Of a stretch of 64,000 bases of DNA, positions 2,821 to 64,000 are shown one piece after another. A program made the translations under genes and the position numbers. Source of the DNA: Patescibacteria group bacterium (GTDB lineage Bacteria; Patescibacteriota; Microgenomatia; UBA10105; UBA927); contig JBGSUE010000045.1 of the NCBI GenBank assembly GCA_041753515.1, forward strand, positions 2,027 to 66,026, in the 5' to 3' direction. Each line of letters opens with the position of its first letter. Position 1 is the stretch's first letter. The notes under the pieces were generated by a model, which did no database searches, was not told the DNA's origin, and saw only the letters and a program-made list of their open reading frames with translations.

Positions 2821-3270
2821 TTATTCTTGCTGGCTAAAGGTAATTTCCGGATCAGGATCAGATATTTCAAAATCCGGATTAATAAAGCCAGTTAAAAGGT
2901 TCATTTTCCAAGCACAATCAGGATACAGGGAATGAAGAGAAGTCAGTGTCTTTCTGTCCATGGCAACAATACAAGTCGTACATCTGGCTGTTTCCGGGTC
3001 AATCGGAGTAGATATATGGCCGGACATATCTATATTGTGATGTTCTAACCATACCATAAATGGCTCTCTCAAATCCGGTGGATATTGATAAATTCTGTCA
3101 AACAAAGGAGGTACAGGATCATCGGGTGCCACACCTTGGATCCTTCTGGAAAAAGCAATGTATTGAGCTTTAAGTCCATATTCAATGAGTTTGTAATTCG
3201 TGTAATATGCAGCCAGCGGAGCCCGTATAATATCTCCCCTGTCAACATAAACGATAGTTTTAAGTTTCAT
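2821..3270 (-). CDS. low-molecular-weight phosphotyrosine phosphatase / ArsC-fold protein with Asp in place of the P-loop Cys
   Basis: N-terminal IVYVDRGDIIRAP aligns to the LMW-PTP P-loop V-C-x-G-N-x-C-R-S-P with C to D; C-terminal DPDPE matches the DP-loop region. Confidence 0.5.
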   Translation of the reverse strand: MKLKTIVYVDRGDIIRAPLAAYYTNYKLIEYGLKAQYIAFSRRIQGVAPDDPVPPLFDRIYQYPPDLREPFMVWLEHHNIDMSGHISTPIDPETARCTTCIVAMDRKTLTSLHSLYPDCAWKMNLLTGFINPDFEISDPDPEITFSQQE

Positions 3271-3345
3271 ATAAAGATGTAATTTACAATTTTCATGTGC
3301 GTATTATATCAAAAAGACGTTAAAAACAGTTTGTACACCTTCCAA

Positions 3346-3362
3346 TTTCGTCCCAACAGGTG
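3346..3362 (-). promoter_or_regulatory. conserved upstream motif copy 2 (TTTCGTCCCAACAGGTG), with TATAAT (from GATATAATAC) downstream on the minus strand
   Basis: Same motif family as 2484-2499 and 4623-4638. Confidence 0.35.
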
Positions 3363-3484
3363 AAAAAATTGTAAACCTAATTGTCAAGTAATTTGTACAC
3401 CCGGATTATTTTCAAAAAAGTATGTGAGATCAATGAAGTGTTCGAACATGATCCGGTACGGGGTACATGTATTTCAATACTGTA

Positions 3485-4561
3485 TTAACGCTTTAATCCT
3501 TGTAGAGCTTTCTTTACGAATTTTCCGAATTTCCGGTCTTTTACTCTTTTCTCCAATTCGGTCATTTTATAAAATTCAGATTCTTTTTTTAATTTAATAA
3601 AATTCCGATATTTATATTCGTCAAGTCTATTTTCTTTCACAGCCTGTATCACTGCACAACCTGGTTCACTGGTATGTGTACAATCGGAAAATTTACAATC
3701 ATGGGATAATGTACCGATTTCATCAAATACATGAACAAGTCCCGTATCCGATTCGGAAATTCCTACCTCTCTCGTTCCAGGATTATCGATGAGTAACCCT
3801 CCATTATCCAAAAAATACATTTCCCGTGTGGTCGTTGTGTGTTTTCCTCTTTCAAGAGTTAAACTAATTTCCCTGGTCTTGATTTCGTCTTTTCCAAGTA
3901 GTTTATTAATTAGCGATGATTTCCCGACTCCTGATGATCCCAGAAAACAATAGGTTTTCCCGGGGATGATATACTTTTTAAGTTCCTGGATTCCATTGTC
4001 AGAAATAATACTGGTTGTAATAATGTCAATATCGTTAAACCTGCTTTTTATCTGATTAATCCTGAAATTCAAATCGTTTTCCGAAATCAAATCAATCTTA
4101 TTAAGAATTATTGCAGGTTTCACCTTTCCTTCTTCTACGAGAACTAAAAATCTTTCGAATCGATTCAGATTATAATCCCTATCCATCGACTCTGTAATGA
4201 ATGCAGTATCAATATTTGTGGCAATTATCTGATTATCCTGCTTATTACTGTATTTCTTTTTCAGCACAGTACGTCTGGGAATAATCTTGCGGATAACAGC
4301 TTGTTTTCCGGTTAGACTTTCAAATATTACCCAATCACCGACAGCAGGAAAGTCTTCCCTTTTTGTTGCGATAAACATCTGTTTTCCCGTTATTTTTGCT
4401 ACATATTCATTTCGATCCTTATCTATAATCCGATAGGCTTCCTTATATTCAGCAGTTACTCTGGCAATGGGATAGCTGTCCAGTCCCAGTGTCTTTCTTG
4501 CTGTTTCAAAAAATTCACCATACCCTAGATCTTTCAATTTTATATTCGTTGTTGATTCCAT
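3485..4561 (-). CDS. rsgA: ribosome small-subunit-dependent GTPase A (circularly permuted GTPase)
   Basis: GSSGVGKSSLIN P-loop after the DxxG-type order, C-terminal zinc-finger cysteines (CKFSDCTHTSEPGC), OB-fold N-terminus. Confidence 0.9.
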   Translation of the reverse strand: MESTTNIKLKDLGYGEFFETARKTLGLDSYPIARVTAEYKEAYRIIDKDRNEYVAKITGKQMFIATKREDFPAVGDWVIFESLTGKQAVIRKIIPRRTVLKKKYSNKQDNQIIATNIDTAFITESMDRDYNLNRFERFLVLVEEGKVKPAIILNKIDLISENDLNFRINQIKSRFNDIDIITTSIISDNGIQELKKYIIPGKTYCFLGSSGVGKSSLINKLLGKDEIKTREISLTLERGKHTTTTREMYFLDNGGLLIDNPGTREVGISESDTGLVHVFDEIGTLSHDCKFSDCTHTSEPGCAVIQAVKENRLDEYKYRNFIKLKKESEFYKMTELEKRVKDRKFGKFVKKALQGLKR

Positions 4562-18530: not shown

Positions 18531-18794
18531 ATGGCATGGTTCTGCTATATTGTGGAATGCAGTGACGGATCACTGTATACAGGAATTACACTGGACCTTA
18601 AAAGACGGGAAGACGAACACAATACGGATGATAAAAAAGGTGCAAAATATACCAGATATAAACGTCCGGTAAAAATCGTGTATTCCGAAAAATTTCAGAC
18701 ACAATCCCAAGCACGGATAAGAGAAGCAGCAATTAAGAGATGGCCGAAAGAAAATAAGGTAAAATTGATAATGAAAAATAAAATGGGCCGCTAG
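18531..18794 (+). CDS. GIY-YIG nuclease family protein (YhbQ/UPF0213-like)
   Basis: YIVECSDGSLYTGIT ... KRREDEHN GIY-YIG core; TAG stop lies inside the tRNA-like sequence GGGCCGCTAGCTCAATGG. Confidence 0.75.
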   Translation: MAWFCYIVECSDGSLYTGITLDLKRREDEHNTDDKKGAKYTRYKRPVKIVYSEKFQTQSQARIREAAIKRWPKENKVKLIMKNKMGR

Positions 18795-18835
18795 CTCAAT
18801 GGTAGACCCGGCAGCTGCCGGGCTTTTAAGCGAAT
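18785..18835 (+). other. tRNA-like 5' fragment (acceptor plus D-arm-like GGGCCGCTAGCTCAATGGTAGA, then palindrome CCCGGCAGCTGCCGGG and CTTTTAAGC)
   Basis: Resembles the 5' half and anticodon loop of the downstream tRNA-Lys but has no matching 3' acceptor strand. Confidence 0.35.
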
Positions 18836-19114
18836 ATGTTTCAAGTTTATGTAATTCGGGCAAGTACGAATGGGAAAATATATATCGGGCAAACAGAAGA
18901 TATCGCTAAAAGATTGGATCAGCATAATAATCGCAATTTCGACAAACGTGCATATACAAAACTAAACGGAAAAGATTGGAAGATTGTGTATACTGAAGAA
19001 TATCAAACAAGATCTGAAGCTTTAAAACGAGAAAATGAACTCAAATCACACAGAGGAAGAGACTTTATTAAAAATTTACTTTCGGGGGTCGGTAGCTCAA
19101 CGGTAGAGCAGTAG
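18836..19114 (+). CDS. GIY-YIG nuclease family protein (YhbQ/UPF0213-like), second copy
   Basis: VYVIRASTNGKIYIGQTEDIAKRLDQHN; TAG stop falls at positions 8-10 of tRNA-Lys. Confidence 0.75.
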   Translation: MFQVYVIRASTNGKIYIGQTEDIAKRLDQHNNRNFDKRAYTKLNGKDWKIVYTEEYQTRSEALKRENELKSHRGRDFIKNLLSGVGSSTVEQ

Positions 19115-19158
19115 CCTTTTAAGCTATTGGTTCAGGGTTCGAATCCCTGCCGACTCAC
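19086..19158 (+). tRNA. tRNA-Lys (anticodon TTT)
   Basis: Hand-folded cloverleaf: acceptor GGGTCGG/CCGACTC, D-stem GCTC/GAGC, anticodon loop CTTTTAA, T-arm CAGGGTTCGAATCCCTG. Confidence 0.85.
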
Positions 19159-20927
19159 AAATTAGCATGTTTTACCCCGAACTTATCAGCAAGAAGTTGC
19201 TGAATAAGATATTGTGGTAAATTAAGTTGAATATCAATCTTGTCAGGTATTAACTGATCCTTCTTTGGTACACCAGCAATGCGATCCTTGTCGGTCTTTG
19301 GTCGGGCATACACAACAACTTGATCTATGATCATATGGATGAGTTCATACAATTCTTTTTCATCCTTTTCTGCTTTATTCAAGGCTTTCTCGTATTTTTT
19401 GGCATAAAGCTCCAGACTATACACATAGCCCTTTGATAAAGACTCCTGAGCAAGCTCAAAATCAATCTTTTTAATGCTTTCATTGCAATTACTTTCTTGT
19501 TTTTTTAATTCAGCAATTTGCTTGTTCAGTTCTTCAATATCAATATGTCCATGTGCGTGTTGATTGAGGATATTAGTCTTGATCTTGGGTATGGCATTAA
19601 GTATCTTAGTCCATCGCTTTCGTTCTTTTTTCAAACGATCAATGTTAATGCGAGATGAGTCTAACCCTTTCTGATATTCGTAAGTAGCTTTGGGATTGCT
19701 TAAAAGTTGCTTAACAAACTCAATAACATATTCTTCTAACTCATCTGCTGGAATAGGTATTACTGGACAGTTGTTCTGAGGGTATTTCTTCTTGTTTTTT
19801 CTGTTGCATTGGTAATAATAGGAAAAGTCTAATTTTTTACCTACATATTTTCTTGCTCCTGTCCAAGACCATTCGGATTCTTTTGATCCTCCCAGACTCC
19901 TGCAATGGTCGCATTTTAATAGACCAGATAGCAAGTAAAAATGTTGGTCAACCTTTCTCTGGGCAAGAGTTCTCCTTGCAGAGACCTCCTTCAATATCTT
20001 TTGAGCCAAATCAAACAATGGTTGCGGGATTATTGGCTCATGTTTATATGGAGATAATTTCCACTCACCCTTTGGTAAACGCTTACTTTTAACTGTCTTG
20101 TCGTAGTAGCGAGTACCGATATACACCTCATCCTCCAAGATCGATCTCACTGTTTCCATACGCCAGAAATGTATTGGGTTGGTCTTGCGAGGTTTTCCCT
20201 TGCGCTTGTTGTTGTTAATCGCTGAGATTTCAGGACTAACCATTTTTTGCTCCTGGAGAGTGTCTGCAATTTTCTGTGGACTGAGTCCACCTGTTGTAAA
20301 TAATCCAAAAATCATTTCTACAACATCAGATTCTTCCTTGAGAATTACCAAGTGTCCATTTTCGTCCTTGTTGTAACCATAAGGAGCGTTAGCCCCCATT
20401 AACTTTCCTTGTTTTATCGCTTCTTCACGACCACCTCTGGTTCTTGCCAAGATATTTTCTCGTTCAAGTTCTGCAAGGACGCCCATAATGCCAAGCATAG
20501 CCTTACCAAATGGGGTAGAAGTATCTATACTTTCAGTTGCCGAGAGAAACTCAATTTTATTTTCTTCAAAAAACTCAACAGTATCCATCAGTATCCGAAG
20601 TTTTCTGGCAAAACGATCTATCTTGAAAACTGCCACTGTATCAAAAGGTTTGTTACCCTTGGGAGCGAGAAGATAATCCTCCATCAATTTTCTGAAACCT
20701 GGTCTTTCTTCAAGTTTTACAGTTCCACTAATGTCATCATTATAGACGTGGTTTTCACCAGCAAATACAAATGATGGTTGCCCACTGTTCATATTTAACT
20801 TCGTTTTCAATAATGCTTCCACTGCTGATCTCTGAACATTAGGCCCAAACTTTTCTGCCTGATCATCTGTTGAGACTCGAATGTAAAAGGCAACCCTTCG
20901 TGGGATTTCTTGCTGTTTTCTATCCAT
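19155..20927 (-). CDS. large serine recombinase (serine integrase type)
   Basis: N-terminal resolvase catalytic domain (AFYIRVSTDDQ), recombinase domain and Cys-rich zinc ribbon (CDHC..CNRKNKKKYPQNNC), 590 aa. Confidence 0.9.
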   Translation of the reverse strand: MDRKQQEIPRRVAFYIRVSTDDQAEKFGPNVQRSAVEALLKTKLNMNSGQPSFVFAGENHVYNDDISGTVKLEERPGFRKLMEDYLLAPKGNKPFDTVAVFKIDRFARKLRILMDTVEFFEENKIEFLSATESIDTSTPFGKAMLGIMGVLAELERENILARTRGGREEAIKQGKLMGANAPYGYNKDENGHLVILKEESDVVEMIFGLFTTGGLSPQKIADTLQEQKMVSPEISAINNNKRKGKPRKTNPIHFWRMETVRSILEDEVYIGTRYYDKTVKSKRLPKGEWKLSPYKHEPIIPQPLFDLAQKILKEVSARRTLAQRKVDQHFYLLSGLLKCDHCRSLGGSKESEWSWTGARKYVGKKLDFSYYYQCNRKNKKKYPQNNCPVIPIPADELEEYVIEFVKQLLSNPKATYEYQKGLDSSRINIDRLKKERKRWTKILNAIPKIKTNILNQHAHGHIDIEELNKQIAELKKQESNCNESIKKIDFELAQESLSKGYVYSLELYAKKYEKALNKAEKDEKELYELIHMIIDQVVVYARPKTDKDRIAGVPKKDQLIPDKIDIQLNLPQYLIQQLLADKFGVKHANL

Positions 20928-55276: not shown

Positions 55277-56647
55277 CTAATTAATTTTTCTCCCGGTTAA
55301 TATTTCCCTTATTTCTAACATCGCGGAATATGTAGGCAGAATCCATAAAATCTCATTCTCATCCGATAACTCAATAGCCTTCTCTAATGCAATTCTCATA
55401 TCTTCAAATACATACGCCCTTTCCCCTTTTTCCTTTTCCCTTTCACCTTGCATTTCTTCCCTTTCCCCTTTCTCCTTTTCCCTTTCACCTAACCCAGCAT
55501 ACTTCAATCGAAGCGCCATATCGTAACCGCGATCTCCGGAAACGATAAGCTTCCTTTTCCCGTCAATCATTTCAAAGTCCACATCCCAGATCCAGGATAC
55601 ATCCGTACCATCGGGAATCCGATCGTTTAATAGAAATAAAATAGGGCCTTTTTTGGGAAGAACGGTACGGAGCGACTCGTTGAATCCGGCAGGGTTTTTT
55701 GAAAGTAATATTTTTATGTTCTTCCCCTTATGTACAATTTCTTCCTGCCGACCAAATGCCGGACGGAACAATCTGAGCGAATTCTGATCTTGTACACCCA
55801 ATATCCGTGCACACAACACTGCAGCAAGGGTATTATAGACGTTGTATGTCCCTTCCAGAGGGCTTTTGACATCACCAGACTGTATCCGTACGTCAGGATG
55901 CGTAAACCCACATTTACCGCAGCTGTACTTACCCAGATGCGAAAAATACACACCTCCGTACGTCAACCGCTGATTACAGGACGGACAATAAATGGAGTCA
56001 GTGGCATGCTGTATGTTCGTCAAAAACAACTCCCTGTTTTCCAAACCAAAATACTGTACGTTCTTCAACTTTTTTCCAATATATGCCAACTGGGGATCAT
56101 CGGCATTGATGACAAATGCCGTCGCATGCATATTCCCGAACGTTCCGGCCCATTTTACCGCAATCGCATCCACTTCACCGTACCGGTCCAACTGATCGCG
56201 AAACAGATTCAGAAGAACGAGGATATCCGGCGGTTTCTGCCGACACATACCGCCAAGCGCAGATTCATCGACTTCAAAAATATACACATCGTGTTTCAGT
56301 TTCCCCAGGATTGTCGTATCCGCGCATAAAACCGATACGAGGCCGTTGTCTAAATTAGCCCCGCTATCATTCCGTTTCACCTTTACACCGGATTTTCGCA
56401 GAATTGTTTCAAGCATGGAGGCTGTCGTCGTTTTTCCGTTCGTACCGGCAATATATAGTACTTTTTTACTTCGAAAATCAAAATGGGAAAGAATATCGGG
56501 TGAAATCCGGAGAGCCACCTCCCCCGGCCACGTCCCCCCAGATCCTTTTTTCAACAACTGAATGACAGAGCGAGAAATACGGGAGGCAACGACAGCAAAC
56601 CGGTCACGGATGGAAAGCATGAATATATTATCTCTTAATACAAACAT
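55277..56647 (-). CDS. murT: lipid II isoglutaminyl synthase Mur-ligase subunit
   Basis: Mur ligase P-loop YIAGTNGKTTT, DUF1727 C-terminus with CPSCNQRL...CGKCGF zinc ribbon; ORF-track N-terminal extension trimmed (start could also be 56620). Confidence 0.85.
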   Translation of the reverse strand: MFVLRDNIFMLSIRDRFAVVASRISRSVIQLLKKGSGGTWPGEVALRISPDILSHFDFRSKKVLYIAGTNGKTTTASMLETILRKSGVKVKRNDSGANLDNGLVSVLCADTTILGKLKHDVYIFEVDESALGGMCRQKPPDILVLLNLFRDQLDRYGEVDAIAVKWAGTFGNMHATAFVINADDPQLAYIGKKLKNVQYFGLENRELFLTNIQHATDSIYCPSCNQRLTYGGVYFSHLGKYSCGKCGFTHPDVRIQSGDVKSPLEGTYNVYNTLAAVLCARILGVQDQNSLRLFRPAFGRQEEIVHKGKNIKILLSKNPAGFNESLRTVLPKKGPILFLLNDRIPDGTDVSWIWDVDFEMIDGKRKLIVSGDRGYDMALRLKYAGLGEREKEKGEREEMQGEREKEKGERAYVFEDMRIALEKAIELSDENEILWILPTYSAMLEIREILTGRKIN

Positions 56648-56650
56648 TTT

Positions 56651-56748
56651 GTCATTGCGAGACCGTTCCCACGGCGAAGCCCTGCCTGCCGGCAGGCAGG
56701 AATCTCGTTCGGGATCGCCACGCCAAGCTAAGCTTGGCTCGCGATGAC
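56651..56748. repeat. MITE-like element bounded by 11-bp inverted repeat GTCATTGCGAG/CTCGCGATGAC, with internal palindromes (copy C-related)
   Basis: CCTGCCTGCCGGCAGGCAGG 20-bp palindrome, CCAAGCTAAGCTTGG palindrome, GGAATCTCGTTCGGGAT related to copies A and B. Confidence 0.55.
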
Positions 56749-56752
56749 ACAT

Positions 56753-63484: not shown

Positions 63485-63529
63485 TTAGCATACATTGTGA
63501 TATATTTTTCATACACAGTGCGGGTGTAG

Positions 63530-63596
63530 TCGCCTCATCGGCGACCCGCCACGGGTCGCACACAGGCGACCCGCCGGAGAGGCGGGTACACCGGTT
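63530..63596 (+). other. GC-rich three-hairpin element starting with a copy of the tRNA-Gly 5' end (GCGGGTGTAGT) and containing direct repeat GGCGACCCGCC x2
   Basis: GTCGCC-TCATC-GGCGAC, GGTCGC-ACACA-GCGACC and CCGCC-GGAGA-GGCGG hairpins in an AT-rich region. Confidence 0.35.
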
Positions 63597-63623
63597 AACC
63601 ATATTATTTCAGCATATTTTGCT

Positions 63624-63890
63624 ATGTTTTATGTTTATGTTGTACAAAGCAATAAAAATAGTACATTATATATTAGAAAAACAAATGACTTAAAAAGAAG
63701 ACTGAAAGAACACAATTCAGGACACGGCGGTGTTTATACCAAAAAAAATGGTCCATATACGCTAATATACTATGAAGCGTTTTTAGATAGTAGAGATGCA
63801 GCGATACAGGAATTGTTTTACAAAAGCGGATACGGAAAGGAAATATTAAAGGAAAAAATTAAAAATAGTTTATATCATAAGCGGGTGTAG
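63624..63890 (+). CDS. GIY-YIG nuclease family protein (YhbQ/UPF0213-like), third copy
   Basis: YVYVVQSNKNSTLYIRKTNDLKRRLKEHN; TAG stop at positions 8-10 of tRNA-Gly. Confidence 0.75.
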   Translation: MFYVYVVQSNKNSTLYIRKTNDLKRRLKEHNSGHGGVYTKKNGPYTLIYYEAFLDSRDAAIQELFYKSGYGKEILKEKIKNSLYHKRV

Positions 63891-63951
63891 TACACTGGCA
63901 GTATGCGACCTTCCCAAGGTTGAGAAGAGGGTTCGATTCCCTTCACCCGCT
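63880..63951 (+). tRNA. tRNA-Gly (anticodon CCC)
   Basis: Hand-folded: acceptor GCGGGTG/CACCCGC, anticodon loop TTCCCAA, T-arm GAGGGTTCGATTCCCTT. Confidence 0.8.
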
Positions 63952-64000
63952 CACGAGTCAAACTCGCTTGTTTGTTTGACGAGTGCCAAGTCTGACTTGG

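Follow-up and report, generated by a model that had tools for sequence, protein, structure and literature searches.

In a 64,000-nucleotide (nt) stretch of DNA, here called the window, from the metagenome-derived genome of an ultra-small bacterium of the Patescibacteria (CPR) group, the gene for tRNA-Gly(CCC) is preceded by a partial copy of its own 5' end, a GC-rich hairpin element and a short open reading frame (ORF) for a nuclease of the GIY-YIG type, whose stop codon lies inside the tRNA gene itself. We propose, with moderate confidence, that a small, selfish nuclease cassette has become nested here in the 5' part of tRNA-Gly(CCC), with the hairpin functionally tied to the nuclease. Since a complete tRNA lies after the ORF, the host loses no tRNA by the insertion. 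The family to which the GC-rich element belongs is dispersed and REP/REPIN-like, and it also travels with this nuclease clade between tRNA genes. An original prediction, made from the sequence of the window, had described the order of target 5' end, structured element, nuclease ORF and intact target as an insertion with target-site duplication; the order is real and so is the insertion, whereas the duplication has no fixed length.

The window has exactly two copies of the 11-nt sequence GCGGGTGTAGT, at 63520-63530 and at 63881-63891 (all coordinates refer to the + strand of the window; features are collected in Table 1), the first copy having been placed 10 nt too high in the original prediction (63530-63540). 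The second copy is the 5' end of tRNA-Gly(CCC) and also provides the last codons of the ORF, as had been claimed and as ARAGORN, Rfam and the ORF coordinates agree: the final codons CGG GTG TAG are tRNA nt 2-10, and the stop is U8-A9-G10 at 63888-63890. The 11-mer alone is weak evidence, because with one mismatch allowed across the 64-kb window two matches were obtained in 9 of 100 shuffles; for an exact copy within 361 nt we estimate a chance of roughly 1e-4. It had been overlooked that the repeat resumes as TACACCGG beyond the GC-rich stretch and ends at 63594. With that stretch taken out, the upstream copy matches tRNA nt 1-18 at 17 of 18 positions, and the GC-rich element is a clean insertion between tRNA nt 10 (TAG|, G10) and nt 11 (T11). 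The upstream copy is a truncated, dead 18-nt stub of the tRNA 5' end. Its absence from other carriers of the ORF had been named as grounds for abandoning the prediction; the copy is present in other genomes with homologous ORFs, and the GCGGGTGTAGT-type duplication is common to the homologous loci L006, L013, L008, L110, L184 and L088/L142 (L-numbers denote fetched genome loci or metagenome contigs; L001 is the window's own contig, which extends 260 bases beyond the window end).

The same module recurs at other tRNA genes. An alignment of 19 diverse GIY-YIG proteins (A1) was too divergent for locus search and a second alignment (A2) was used, the homolog set comprising 80 fetched genome loci. 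The closest homologs of the window protein (54-63% identity) lie almost all directly 5' of a tRNA gene on the same strand, at -22 to +32 nt; these tRNAs are Gln, Gly(CCC) and Ile, and Ser, Asn and Cys are found beside more distant clades. At the close-homolog loci the ORF is preceded by a 5' fragment of a tRNA of the same type, which a 32-nt element with two hairpins interrupts. This module of stub, twin hairpin, ORF and tRNA was found at L002-L013, L026 and L045. Of the 12 loci L002-L013, 11 have the twin hairpin 5' of the ORF, and in every one it lies within 300 nt. At L002, ...AATGGTAG is followed by the element and by GACAACGGA, then by the ORF and an intact tRNA-Gln, and the syntenic LysM/tRNA-Gly(CCC) loci L006, L013 and L008 have a window-like stub, element, ORF and TAG overlap. 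Stubs with an intact tRNA downstream often agree with nt 1-21 of that tRNA at every position (21/21). The ORF ends with TAG at tRNA-Gly nt 8-10 in seven records, which amount to six independent loci given that L001 is the window's contig, and with TAA at tRNA-Gln nt 13-15 in six loci. The length of the duplicated tRNA part varies among loci, from 10 nt to about 57 nt.

GIY-YIG clades at Ser, Asn and Lys tRNAs show the same architecture with hairpin types of their own, so that the type of hairpin varies together with the clade of nuclease. A rough tree intersperses Gly-linked with Gln-linked proteins inside the twin-hairpin clade, indicating that ORF and hairpin have changed their tRNA target; the Ser-tRNA loci and the Lys and L204-type loci form separate clades.

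Relatives without the ORF, whose comparison the original prediction had proposed, provide an empty site. The LysM gene next to the window locus has homologs within a shared PolX/tRNA-Asp/LysM/tRNA-Gly synteny, and in the syntenic L207 the LysM gene and a terminator are directly followed by tRNA-Gly, with stub, hairpin and ORF all absent; L202 also has no ORF. The cassette is an insertion relative to this empty site. In L204-206 the same site is occupied by a GIY-YIG ORF of another clade, also ending in the tRNA's TAG, whose stub reaches tRNA nt 57 and has a single GC hairpin in place of the anticodon arm. Other loci show stages of decay. The ORF of L006 has a premature TAA at codon 25 (3073-3075) and is a pseudogene, and in L135 the 90-nt spacer between twin hairpin and tRNA-Gln encodes ...ERFFKTGYGKRG*, the conserved C-terminal motif of the GIY-YIG family, and is what remains of a deleted ORF. 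Many loci with stub, hairpin and tRNA have no ORF and fit this trend of decay.

Several other accounts of the insertion were rejected. A target-site duplication of fixed length does not agree with the variable length of the repeat or with the differences between stub and tRNA in L013, L088/L142 and L110. An integrase-borne tRNA island does not agree with a repeat at the 5' end or with a 360-nt unit that holds the GIY-YIG ORF only. A tRNA intron or split tRNA was discarded on account of the complete downstream tRNA and of the single case in 76 in which removal of the hairpin restores a tRNA, and a group I ribozyme on account of the roughly 90 nt of non-ORF sequence, which is too little. Two further observations were made at these relatives. 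L205 carries a 776-nt insertion at the 3' end of tRNA-Gly (2977-3760) that is absent from L204 (2977), the LysM protein being the same in both; it is flanked by GCTCCA and begins with another hairpin-bearing pseudo-tRNA-Gly. In L202 (2808-3005), a 19-nt repeat of the tRNA 3' end surrounds about 190 nt.

The GC-rich stretch, which differs from its AT-rich surroundings as had been described, measures 57 nt and not about 65. Its GC content is 77% against 43% for the window, placing it in the top 0.1% of 40-nt windows. The three hairpins reported for it are present and partly exclusive of one another, and so is its direct repeat, GGCGACCCGCC at 63540-63550 and 63565-63575. Compared with shuffled sequence, the stretch folds with high stability (RNA -48.9 kcal/mol, z -5.2; DNA z -4.2). 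The window copy consists of the 32-nt unit with its second hairpin enlarged by an internal duplication, inverted plus direct; L004 and L009 also have nested versions, and L008 a homologous three-hairpin version. A covariance model (R1) found 63530-63586 as its sole match in the window and, in the genome-locus set, matched only close-clade loci. In the Rfam scan only tRNAs reached threshold, and a permissive scan returned chance-level matches only; no Rfam family accounts for the GC-rich element, identity with an annotated RNA having also been named as grounds for abandoning the prediction. Simple scans gave no support for a terminator or promoter role of the element.

The element is not private to the tRNA-Gly locus: it belongs to a dispersed family that is also found without any ORF or tRNA. 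The 32-nt consensus of this family is T-CGCC-TCWTC-GGCG-A-CCCGCC-GRWGA-GGCGGG. In a family alignment of 14 copies with two 6-bp stems (A3), 100% of cells are paired and 7 of the 12 pairs are changed on both sides, none of 500 shuffles being as good and no slid register coming close; the covariance analysis that had been suggested thus found compensatory changes in the stems, and 67 distinct copies bore out the compensatory pairing. Scanning metagenome contigs for the pattern gave matches in at least 120, of which at least 112 are AT-rich, and the same scan of viral contigs found no twin hairpin. Among the matches listed in a hairpin-based search, about 20% of some 75 genuine copies lie 8-57 nt 5' of a GIY-YIG ORF with a tRNA after it, and about 25% occupy tRNA stubs that have no ORF and are next to a complete tRNA of matching type (Pro, Thr, Gln, Gly(GCC), Ile, Met and Arg); the remaining copies are in tandem arrays, in intergenic DNA or in frame within conserved genes.

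The left flank of the family is strongly biased, with G at -1 in 96%, A at -2 in 75% and T at -3 in 63% of 75 copies, and there is no duplication on the right side. In tRNA contexts the TAG tag before the element is the tRNA's own. Taking the element out in silico yields a complete tRNA just once in 76 cases, which shows its carriers to be truncated pseudogenes. Wobble counts in the stems, used as an indication of selection at the RNA level (G-U versus A-C), revealed no G-T excess (7 GT versus 14 AC), and the loops of the two hairpins are complementary in only 10 of 67 copies. Given these wobble counts and loop data, a twin hairpin acting at the DNA level fits better than an RNA element or one long hairpin; the latter was rejected for the family, although the expanded copy of the window does fold as a long hairpin.

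The window protein retains Y5, Y16, R26, H30 and E51 of the GIY-YIG family. Profile comparison with the PDB gave 1zg2 (3e-12), 1ywl (1e-9), SLX1 (7e-6) and I-TevI (0.13). An AlphaFold2 model had a pLDDT (predicted local distance difference test) of 88.6, and a Foldseek search placed 1zg2 and SLX1 at the top (SLX1 template modelling score 0.66, root-mean-square deviation 2.1-2.4 Å), with an E of 0.26 for I-TevI. Judged from these profiles and the predicted fold, the protein belongs to the structure-specific UPF0213/SLX1 branch, with I-TevI and UvrC much more distant. The clade is under purifying selection (pN 0.12-0.31 versus pS 0.64-0.91), and the ORF is compositionally foreign, its GC content being 29.6% against 43% for the window. 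Neither NCBIfam nor PADLOC returned a match for the Gly-locus protein, which accordingly shows no sign of a known defence system; a phage origin finds no support, as viral contigs yielded neither the twin hairpin nor relatives of the protein.

Table 1. Features of the tRNA-Gly(CCC) locus, its GC-rich element and the sister locus at tRNA-Lys(TTT), in window coordinates.
Feature	Position	Strand	Remarks
tRNA-Gly 5' stub, part 1, GCGGGTGTAG	63520..63529	+	identical to nt 1-10 of intact tRNA; exact repeat
GC-rich element, 57 nt	63530..63586	+	three-hairpin expanded copy of the dispersed 32-nt twin-hairpin family
Hairpin 1 of the element	GTCGCC 63529-63534 / GGCGAC 63540-63545	+
Middle hairpin of the element	GCGACCCG 63541-63548 / CGGGTCGC 63552-63559		alternative: CGGGTCGC with GCGACCCG 63566-63573
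Hairpin 2 of the element	CCCGCC 63570-63575 / GGCGGG 63581-63586	+
tRNA-Gly 5' stub, part 2, TACACCGG	63587..63594	+	7/8 match to tRNA nt 11-18 (TACACTGG)
AT-rich spacer, presumed 5' untranslated region of the ORF	63595..63623	+
GIY-YIG ORF, 88 amino acids	63624..63890	+	Pfam PF01541, E=5e-14; last 10 nt including TAG within the tRNA
Intact tRNA-Gly(CCC)	63881..63952	+	ARAGORN; Rfam RF00005, 57.7 bits
Hairpin with T-rich tail 3' of the tRNA, terminator-like	63954..63985	+
Sister locus, two GIY-YIG ORFs before tRNA-Lys	18531..19158	+	architecture as at the Gly locus; other hairpin type and clade
Sister ORF1	18531-18794	+	stop TAG within the pseudo-tRNA
Pseudo-tRNA-Lys, 5' half	18785-18831	+	perfect palindrome CCCGGCAGCTGCCGGG at 18807-18822
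Sister ORF2	18836-19114	+	runs 28 nt into intact tRNA-Lys
Intact tRNA-Lys(TTT)	19086-19158	+

The window contains a sister locus of the same architecture at tRNA-Lys(TTT) (Table 1). The 3' end of this tRNA is abutted by the gene of a 590-amino-acid large serine recombinase with Resolvase, Recombinase and Zn_ribbon_recom domains (19155-20927, - strand), which suggests an integrated element at tRNA-Lys. A further GIY-YIG ORF (Pfam E=1e-14) is located at 1500-1742 of L001, starting about 65 nt 3' of tRNA-Gly, and with this extra ORF the window contig has at least four GIY-YIG genes within 46 kb. Elsewhere in the window, a further GC-rich palindrome, CCTGCCTGCCGGCAGGCAGG (56681-56700), is flanked by the inverted repeats TGTCATTGCGAG and CTCGCGATGACA in the region 56650-56750 and lies at the 5' end of an ORF on the - strand (55277-56752). 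Similar CCTGCC...GGCAGG palindromes occur in L116, L184 and L153, being nested in L153 and absent from the near-identical L143.

Regarding the dispersed copies of the twin hairpin, those in frame within genes add 11-12 residues to GyrB, a UvrD-like helicase, a radical-SAM protein, YchF, MnmA and RecR (L107, L141, L126, L136, L124 and L100). Tandem arrays are found in AT-rich intergenic DNA of L091, L104, L113, L140 and L161, often beside the palindromic repeat TTGCTTACCCAGGGTAAGCAA.

In the mechanism that we favour, the nuclease would make a break in or beside the DNA of a tRNA gene, and it would recognise structure rather than a long sequence, as the protein lacks a DNA-binding domain. Repair would then copy the cassette from a filled allele, with the conserved tRNA sequence serving as homology, and the outcome would be stub, hairpin, ORF and intact tRNA. 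The hairpin could mark or destroy the cut site of the stub, or it could be the binding structure of the nuclease. The ORF presumably forms part of the pre-tRNA transcript, as its leader; cleavage by RNase P at tRNA +1 would remove the ORF's stop codon, so that nuclease levels should stay low. Cassettes would later decay through premature stops and deletion of the ORF, leaving scars of stub and hairpin beside tRNAs.

A stronger form of this proposal, which we put forward tentatively and consider rather improbable, is that the 88-amino-acid SLX1-like nuclease is the dedicated partner of the twin hairpin, as RAYT is for REPs though as an unrelated enzyme, that it recognises the hairpin structure rather than a long DNA sequence and that the unit of about 360 nt is mobile. 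If this were true, the combination of twin hairpin, ORF and tRNA 5' segment would be among the smallest self-sufficient mobile elements known, a unit which invades and rebuilds tRNA genes, rides on tRNA transcription with no loss to the host and seeds solo hairpins genome-wide, protein-coding genes included.

Several observations weigh against the selfish-cassette proposal. Cleavage, transcription and transfer of the cassette are postulated from sequence. The near-invariant Gly of the 'YIG' motif is Arg in the window protein (63675-63677), a change unique among 104 homologs, and the window copy may therefore be inactive or impaired. The 88 amino acids are entirely catalytic domain, with no DNA-binding domain and no evident means of site recognition; a homing endonuclease combines a catalytic with a sequence-specific DNA-binding domain, and the protein has only the former. 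Among the matches listed, about half of the hairpin copies have no GIY-YIG ORF or tRNA nearby, and hence the hairpin can exist, and can probably move, without an adjacent nuclease gene. No closely related pair of filled and empty strains was found, the LysM protein of L207 being only 51% identical. In addition, the intact downstream tRNA retains every sequence of the stub, which makes it difficult to see how the host copy escapes cutting. Finally, the stub is sometimes unlike the intact tRNA (in L013, GCGGGATTAG versus GCGGGCGTAG; also in L088/L142 and L110), and these differences point to a history more complex than one insertion.

The main rival explanation, which we regard as possible though on the whole unlikely, sees two unrelated residents at one address: an ordinary REP/REPIN-type repeat, moved by another enzyme and with no functional tie to the GIY-YIG protein, would insert after GTAG or TAG in hairpin-prone single-stranded DNA, and would gather in stubs only because it is harmless there and lethal in live tRNAs. 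The G/A/T left flank and the lack of a right-hand duplication match the description of GTAG-tagged REPs (PMC3733652). The copies in arrays, in intergenic DNA and in frame in gyrB, a uvrD-like gene, ychF, mnmA and recR, far from any GIY-YIG gene, agree with this explanation, REPs having also been reported within replication and repair genes, and the wobble pairs without strand bias fit an element of DNA. It does not account, however, for the twin hairpin at essentially every cassette of the clade or for the different hairpin types of different GIY-YIG clades. Moreover, in 1.19 Mb of hairpin loci only a single gene for an IS200-like tyrosine transposase was detected, with queries of limited sensitivity, and none of the RAYT type flanked by the repeats. 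The lone IS200-like gene is in L165 (6100-6950), 2.3 kb from a twin hairpin to which it is unrelated, and has different end hairpins of its own that finish in GGGGTAG.

A second explanation, which is decidedly unlikely on its own terms and which is compatible with the nested cassette rather than exclusive of it, takes stub and hairpins for an RNA or operator element of the cassette. In one version they would form a structured 5' leader by which the nuclease mRNA is stabilised or attenuated, or which prevents mispairing of the stub with the downstream tRNA. In another they would be a mimic of the target site, bound by the nuclease for self-repression, with the hairpin abolishing cleavage; I-TevI represses its own synthesis at a pseudo-target. 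The very stable fold, the covarying stems, the constant orientation at 6-57 nt before the start codon and the frequent full identity of the stub with the tRNA, which suggests maintenance, all speak for such a role. On the other side stand the lack of an excess of G-U over A-C in the stems, the copies in coding regions and arrays, where a leader function makes no sense, and a simple scan that predicted no promoter upstream of the stub.

Classical insertion by an integrase or transposase is very improbable; the mobile element would have a target-site duplication of fixed length or an att core, like the genomic islands found at tRNA 3' ends. This explanation would account for the direct repeat of a tRNA end around the ORF, and both the serine recombinase at tRNA-Lys and the separate 3'-end duplications in L202 and L205 are of the kind it expects. 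Nevertheless, the repeat here is at the 5' end, its variable length of 10 to about 57 nt already contradicts this explanation, its sequence can differ from that of the tRNA, the 360-nt unit has no integrase or transposase, and no terminal inverted repeats surround the ORF. A chance repeat without biological meaning, for which only the two matches in some shuffles of the window speak, has next to no probability and is already refuted by the comparative data, since the match grows to 17 of 18 nt with the insert removed and many independent genomes share the arrangement, at tRNAs of several types.

If the selfish-cassette proposal holds, it would add a very compact way for a selfish gene to inhabit an essential gene: the cassette would split the tRNA gene and yet bring the missing piece, borrow the expression of the tRNA and end its frame in a conserved TAG or TAA. 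It would link a REP-like repeat family to a class of nuclease other than the tyrosine transposases, which bears on the question of who moves such repeats, and would suggest a function for the widespread, uncharacterised UPF0213 proteins. It would also explain tRNA fragments, GC-rich islands and 11-residue inserts in housekeeping proteins of Patescibacteria genomes, which otherwise confuse annotation, and a minimal nuclease guided by structure would be of practical interest.

Regarding known systems, our reading of the literature, incomplete in its coverage, brought up no account of this module, whether from Patescibacteria or from other organisms, and nothing relevant on GIY-YIG proteins with Patescibacteria or tRNA stubs or on the function of UPF0213/YhbQ. 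The best matches of the protein in sequence and fold are UPF0213 (YhbQ/BH0048/EF2693) and SLX1, with which it shares the single GIY-YIG domain. SLX1 cuts branched and hairpin DNA; unlike the window protein, it needs SLX4 and has a RING domain. The bacterial UPF0213 proteins have, to our knowledge, no known function, and we are aware of no published case in which one lies within a tRNA gene or is coupled to a repeat family.

Among tested precedents, SegB comes closest. This GIY-YIG homing endonuclease of phages cuts inside tRNA genes (PMC13096335; Brok-Volchanskaya 2008 cited there), and its breaks, followed by recombination, lead to tandem duplications of the tRNA region with truncated segB (PMC13096335). 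As with SegB of T4-like phages, the GIY-YIG gene here lies beside tRNA genes of many isotypes. SegB, however, is a phage protein of more than 200 amino acids with a DNA-binding part, whereas the window protein has 88, is catalytic only, is chromosomal and falls in the UPF0213/SLX1 branch, and descriptions of SegB loci include neither a tRNA stub split by a hairpin nor a stop codon within the tRNA. Regarding the polymorphism typical of homing, we found an empty site in the distant syntenic L207 and another clade at the same site in L204, with no close strain pair.

The hairpin resembles the GTAG-tagged REP/REPIN repeats (PMC3733652, PMC3337134), in which a GC-rich palindrome of 20-40 nt follows (G)TAG and units are paired in opposite orientation. 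The present element is likewise a GC-rich imperfect palindrome with compensatory stems and an unpaired (G)TAG tag at one end. By metagenome scan it is present in at least 120 contigs. As in REPs, copies are dispersed, also inside replication and repair genes, the TAG can serve as the stop of neighbouring ORFs (PMC3733652), and copies cluster beside a dedicated nuclease gene; the in-frame intragenic copies are paralleled by intragenic REPs and by the palindromic elements of Rickettsia. In contrast to the REP/RAYT system, the neighbour here is a GIY-YIG nuclease and not a tyrosine (HUH) transposase, the hairpin pair lies only 5' of the gene, within a tRNA stub, and the 64-kb window has just one copy. 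The REP survey did not cover Patescibacteria, the host here.

Mitochondria provide two further parallels. The GC42 GC clusters of yeast and the double-hairpin elements of Allomyces (Paquin et al. 2000 cited there) have an AG target (PMC4478555). Like these, the twin hairpins are short, mobile GC-rich hairpins in AT-rich genomes, with an AG target and with nested and merged copies. Furthermore, Paquin and co-workers are said to have described in 1994 a mobile mitochondrial GIY-YIG ORF in atp6 of Allomyces, which brings a duplicate gene end and leaves a pseudo-fragment; there, as here, the target gene is restored by a carried copy of the displaced end. The mitochondrial systems differ in being organellar and without sequence relation, in that the duplicated end is a 3' coding end and not a tRNA 5' end, and in that they are not described as having hairpin, stub and ORF in fixed association. 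Altogether, the arrangement combines known kinds of component, namely a free-standing GIY-YIG gene at tRNAs, a REP-like repeat and the duplication of a gene end.

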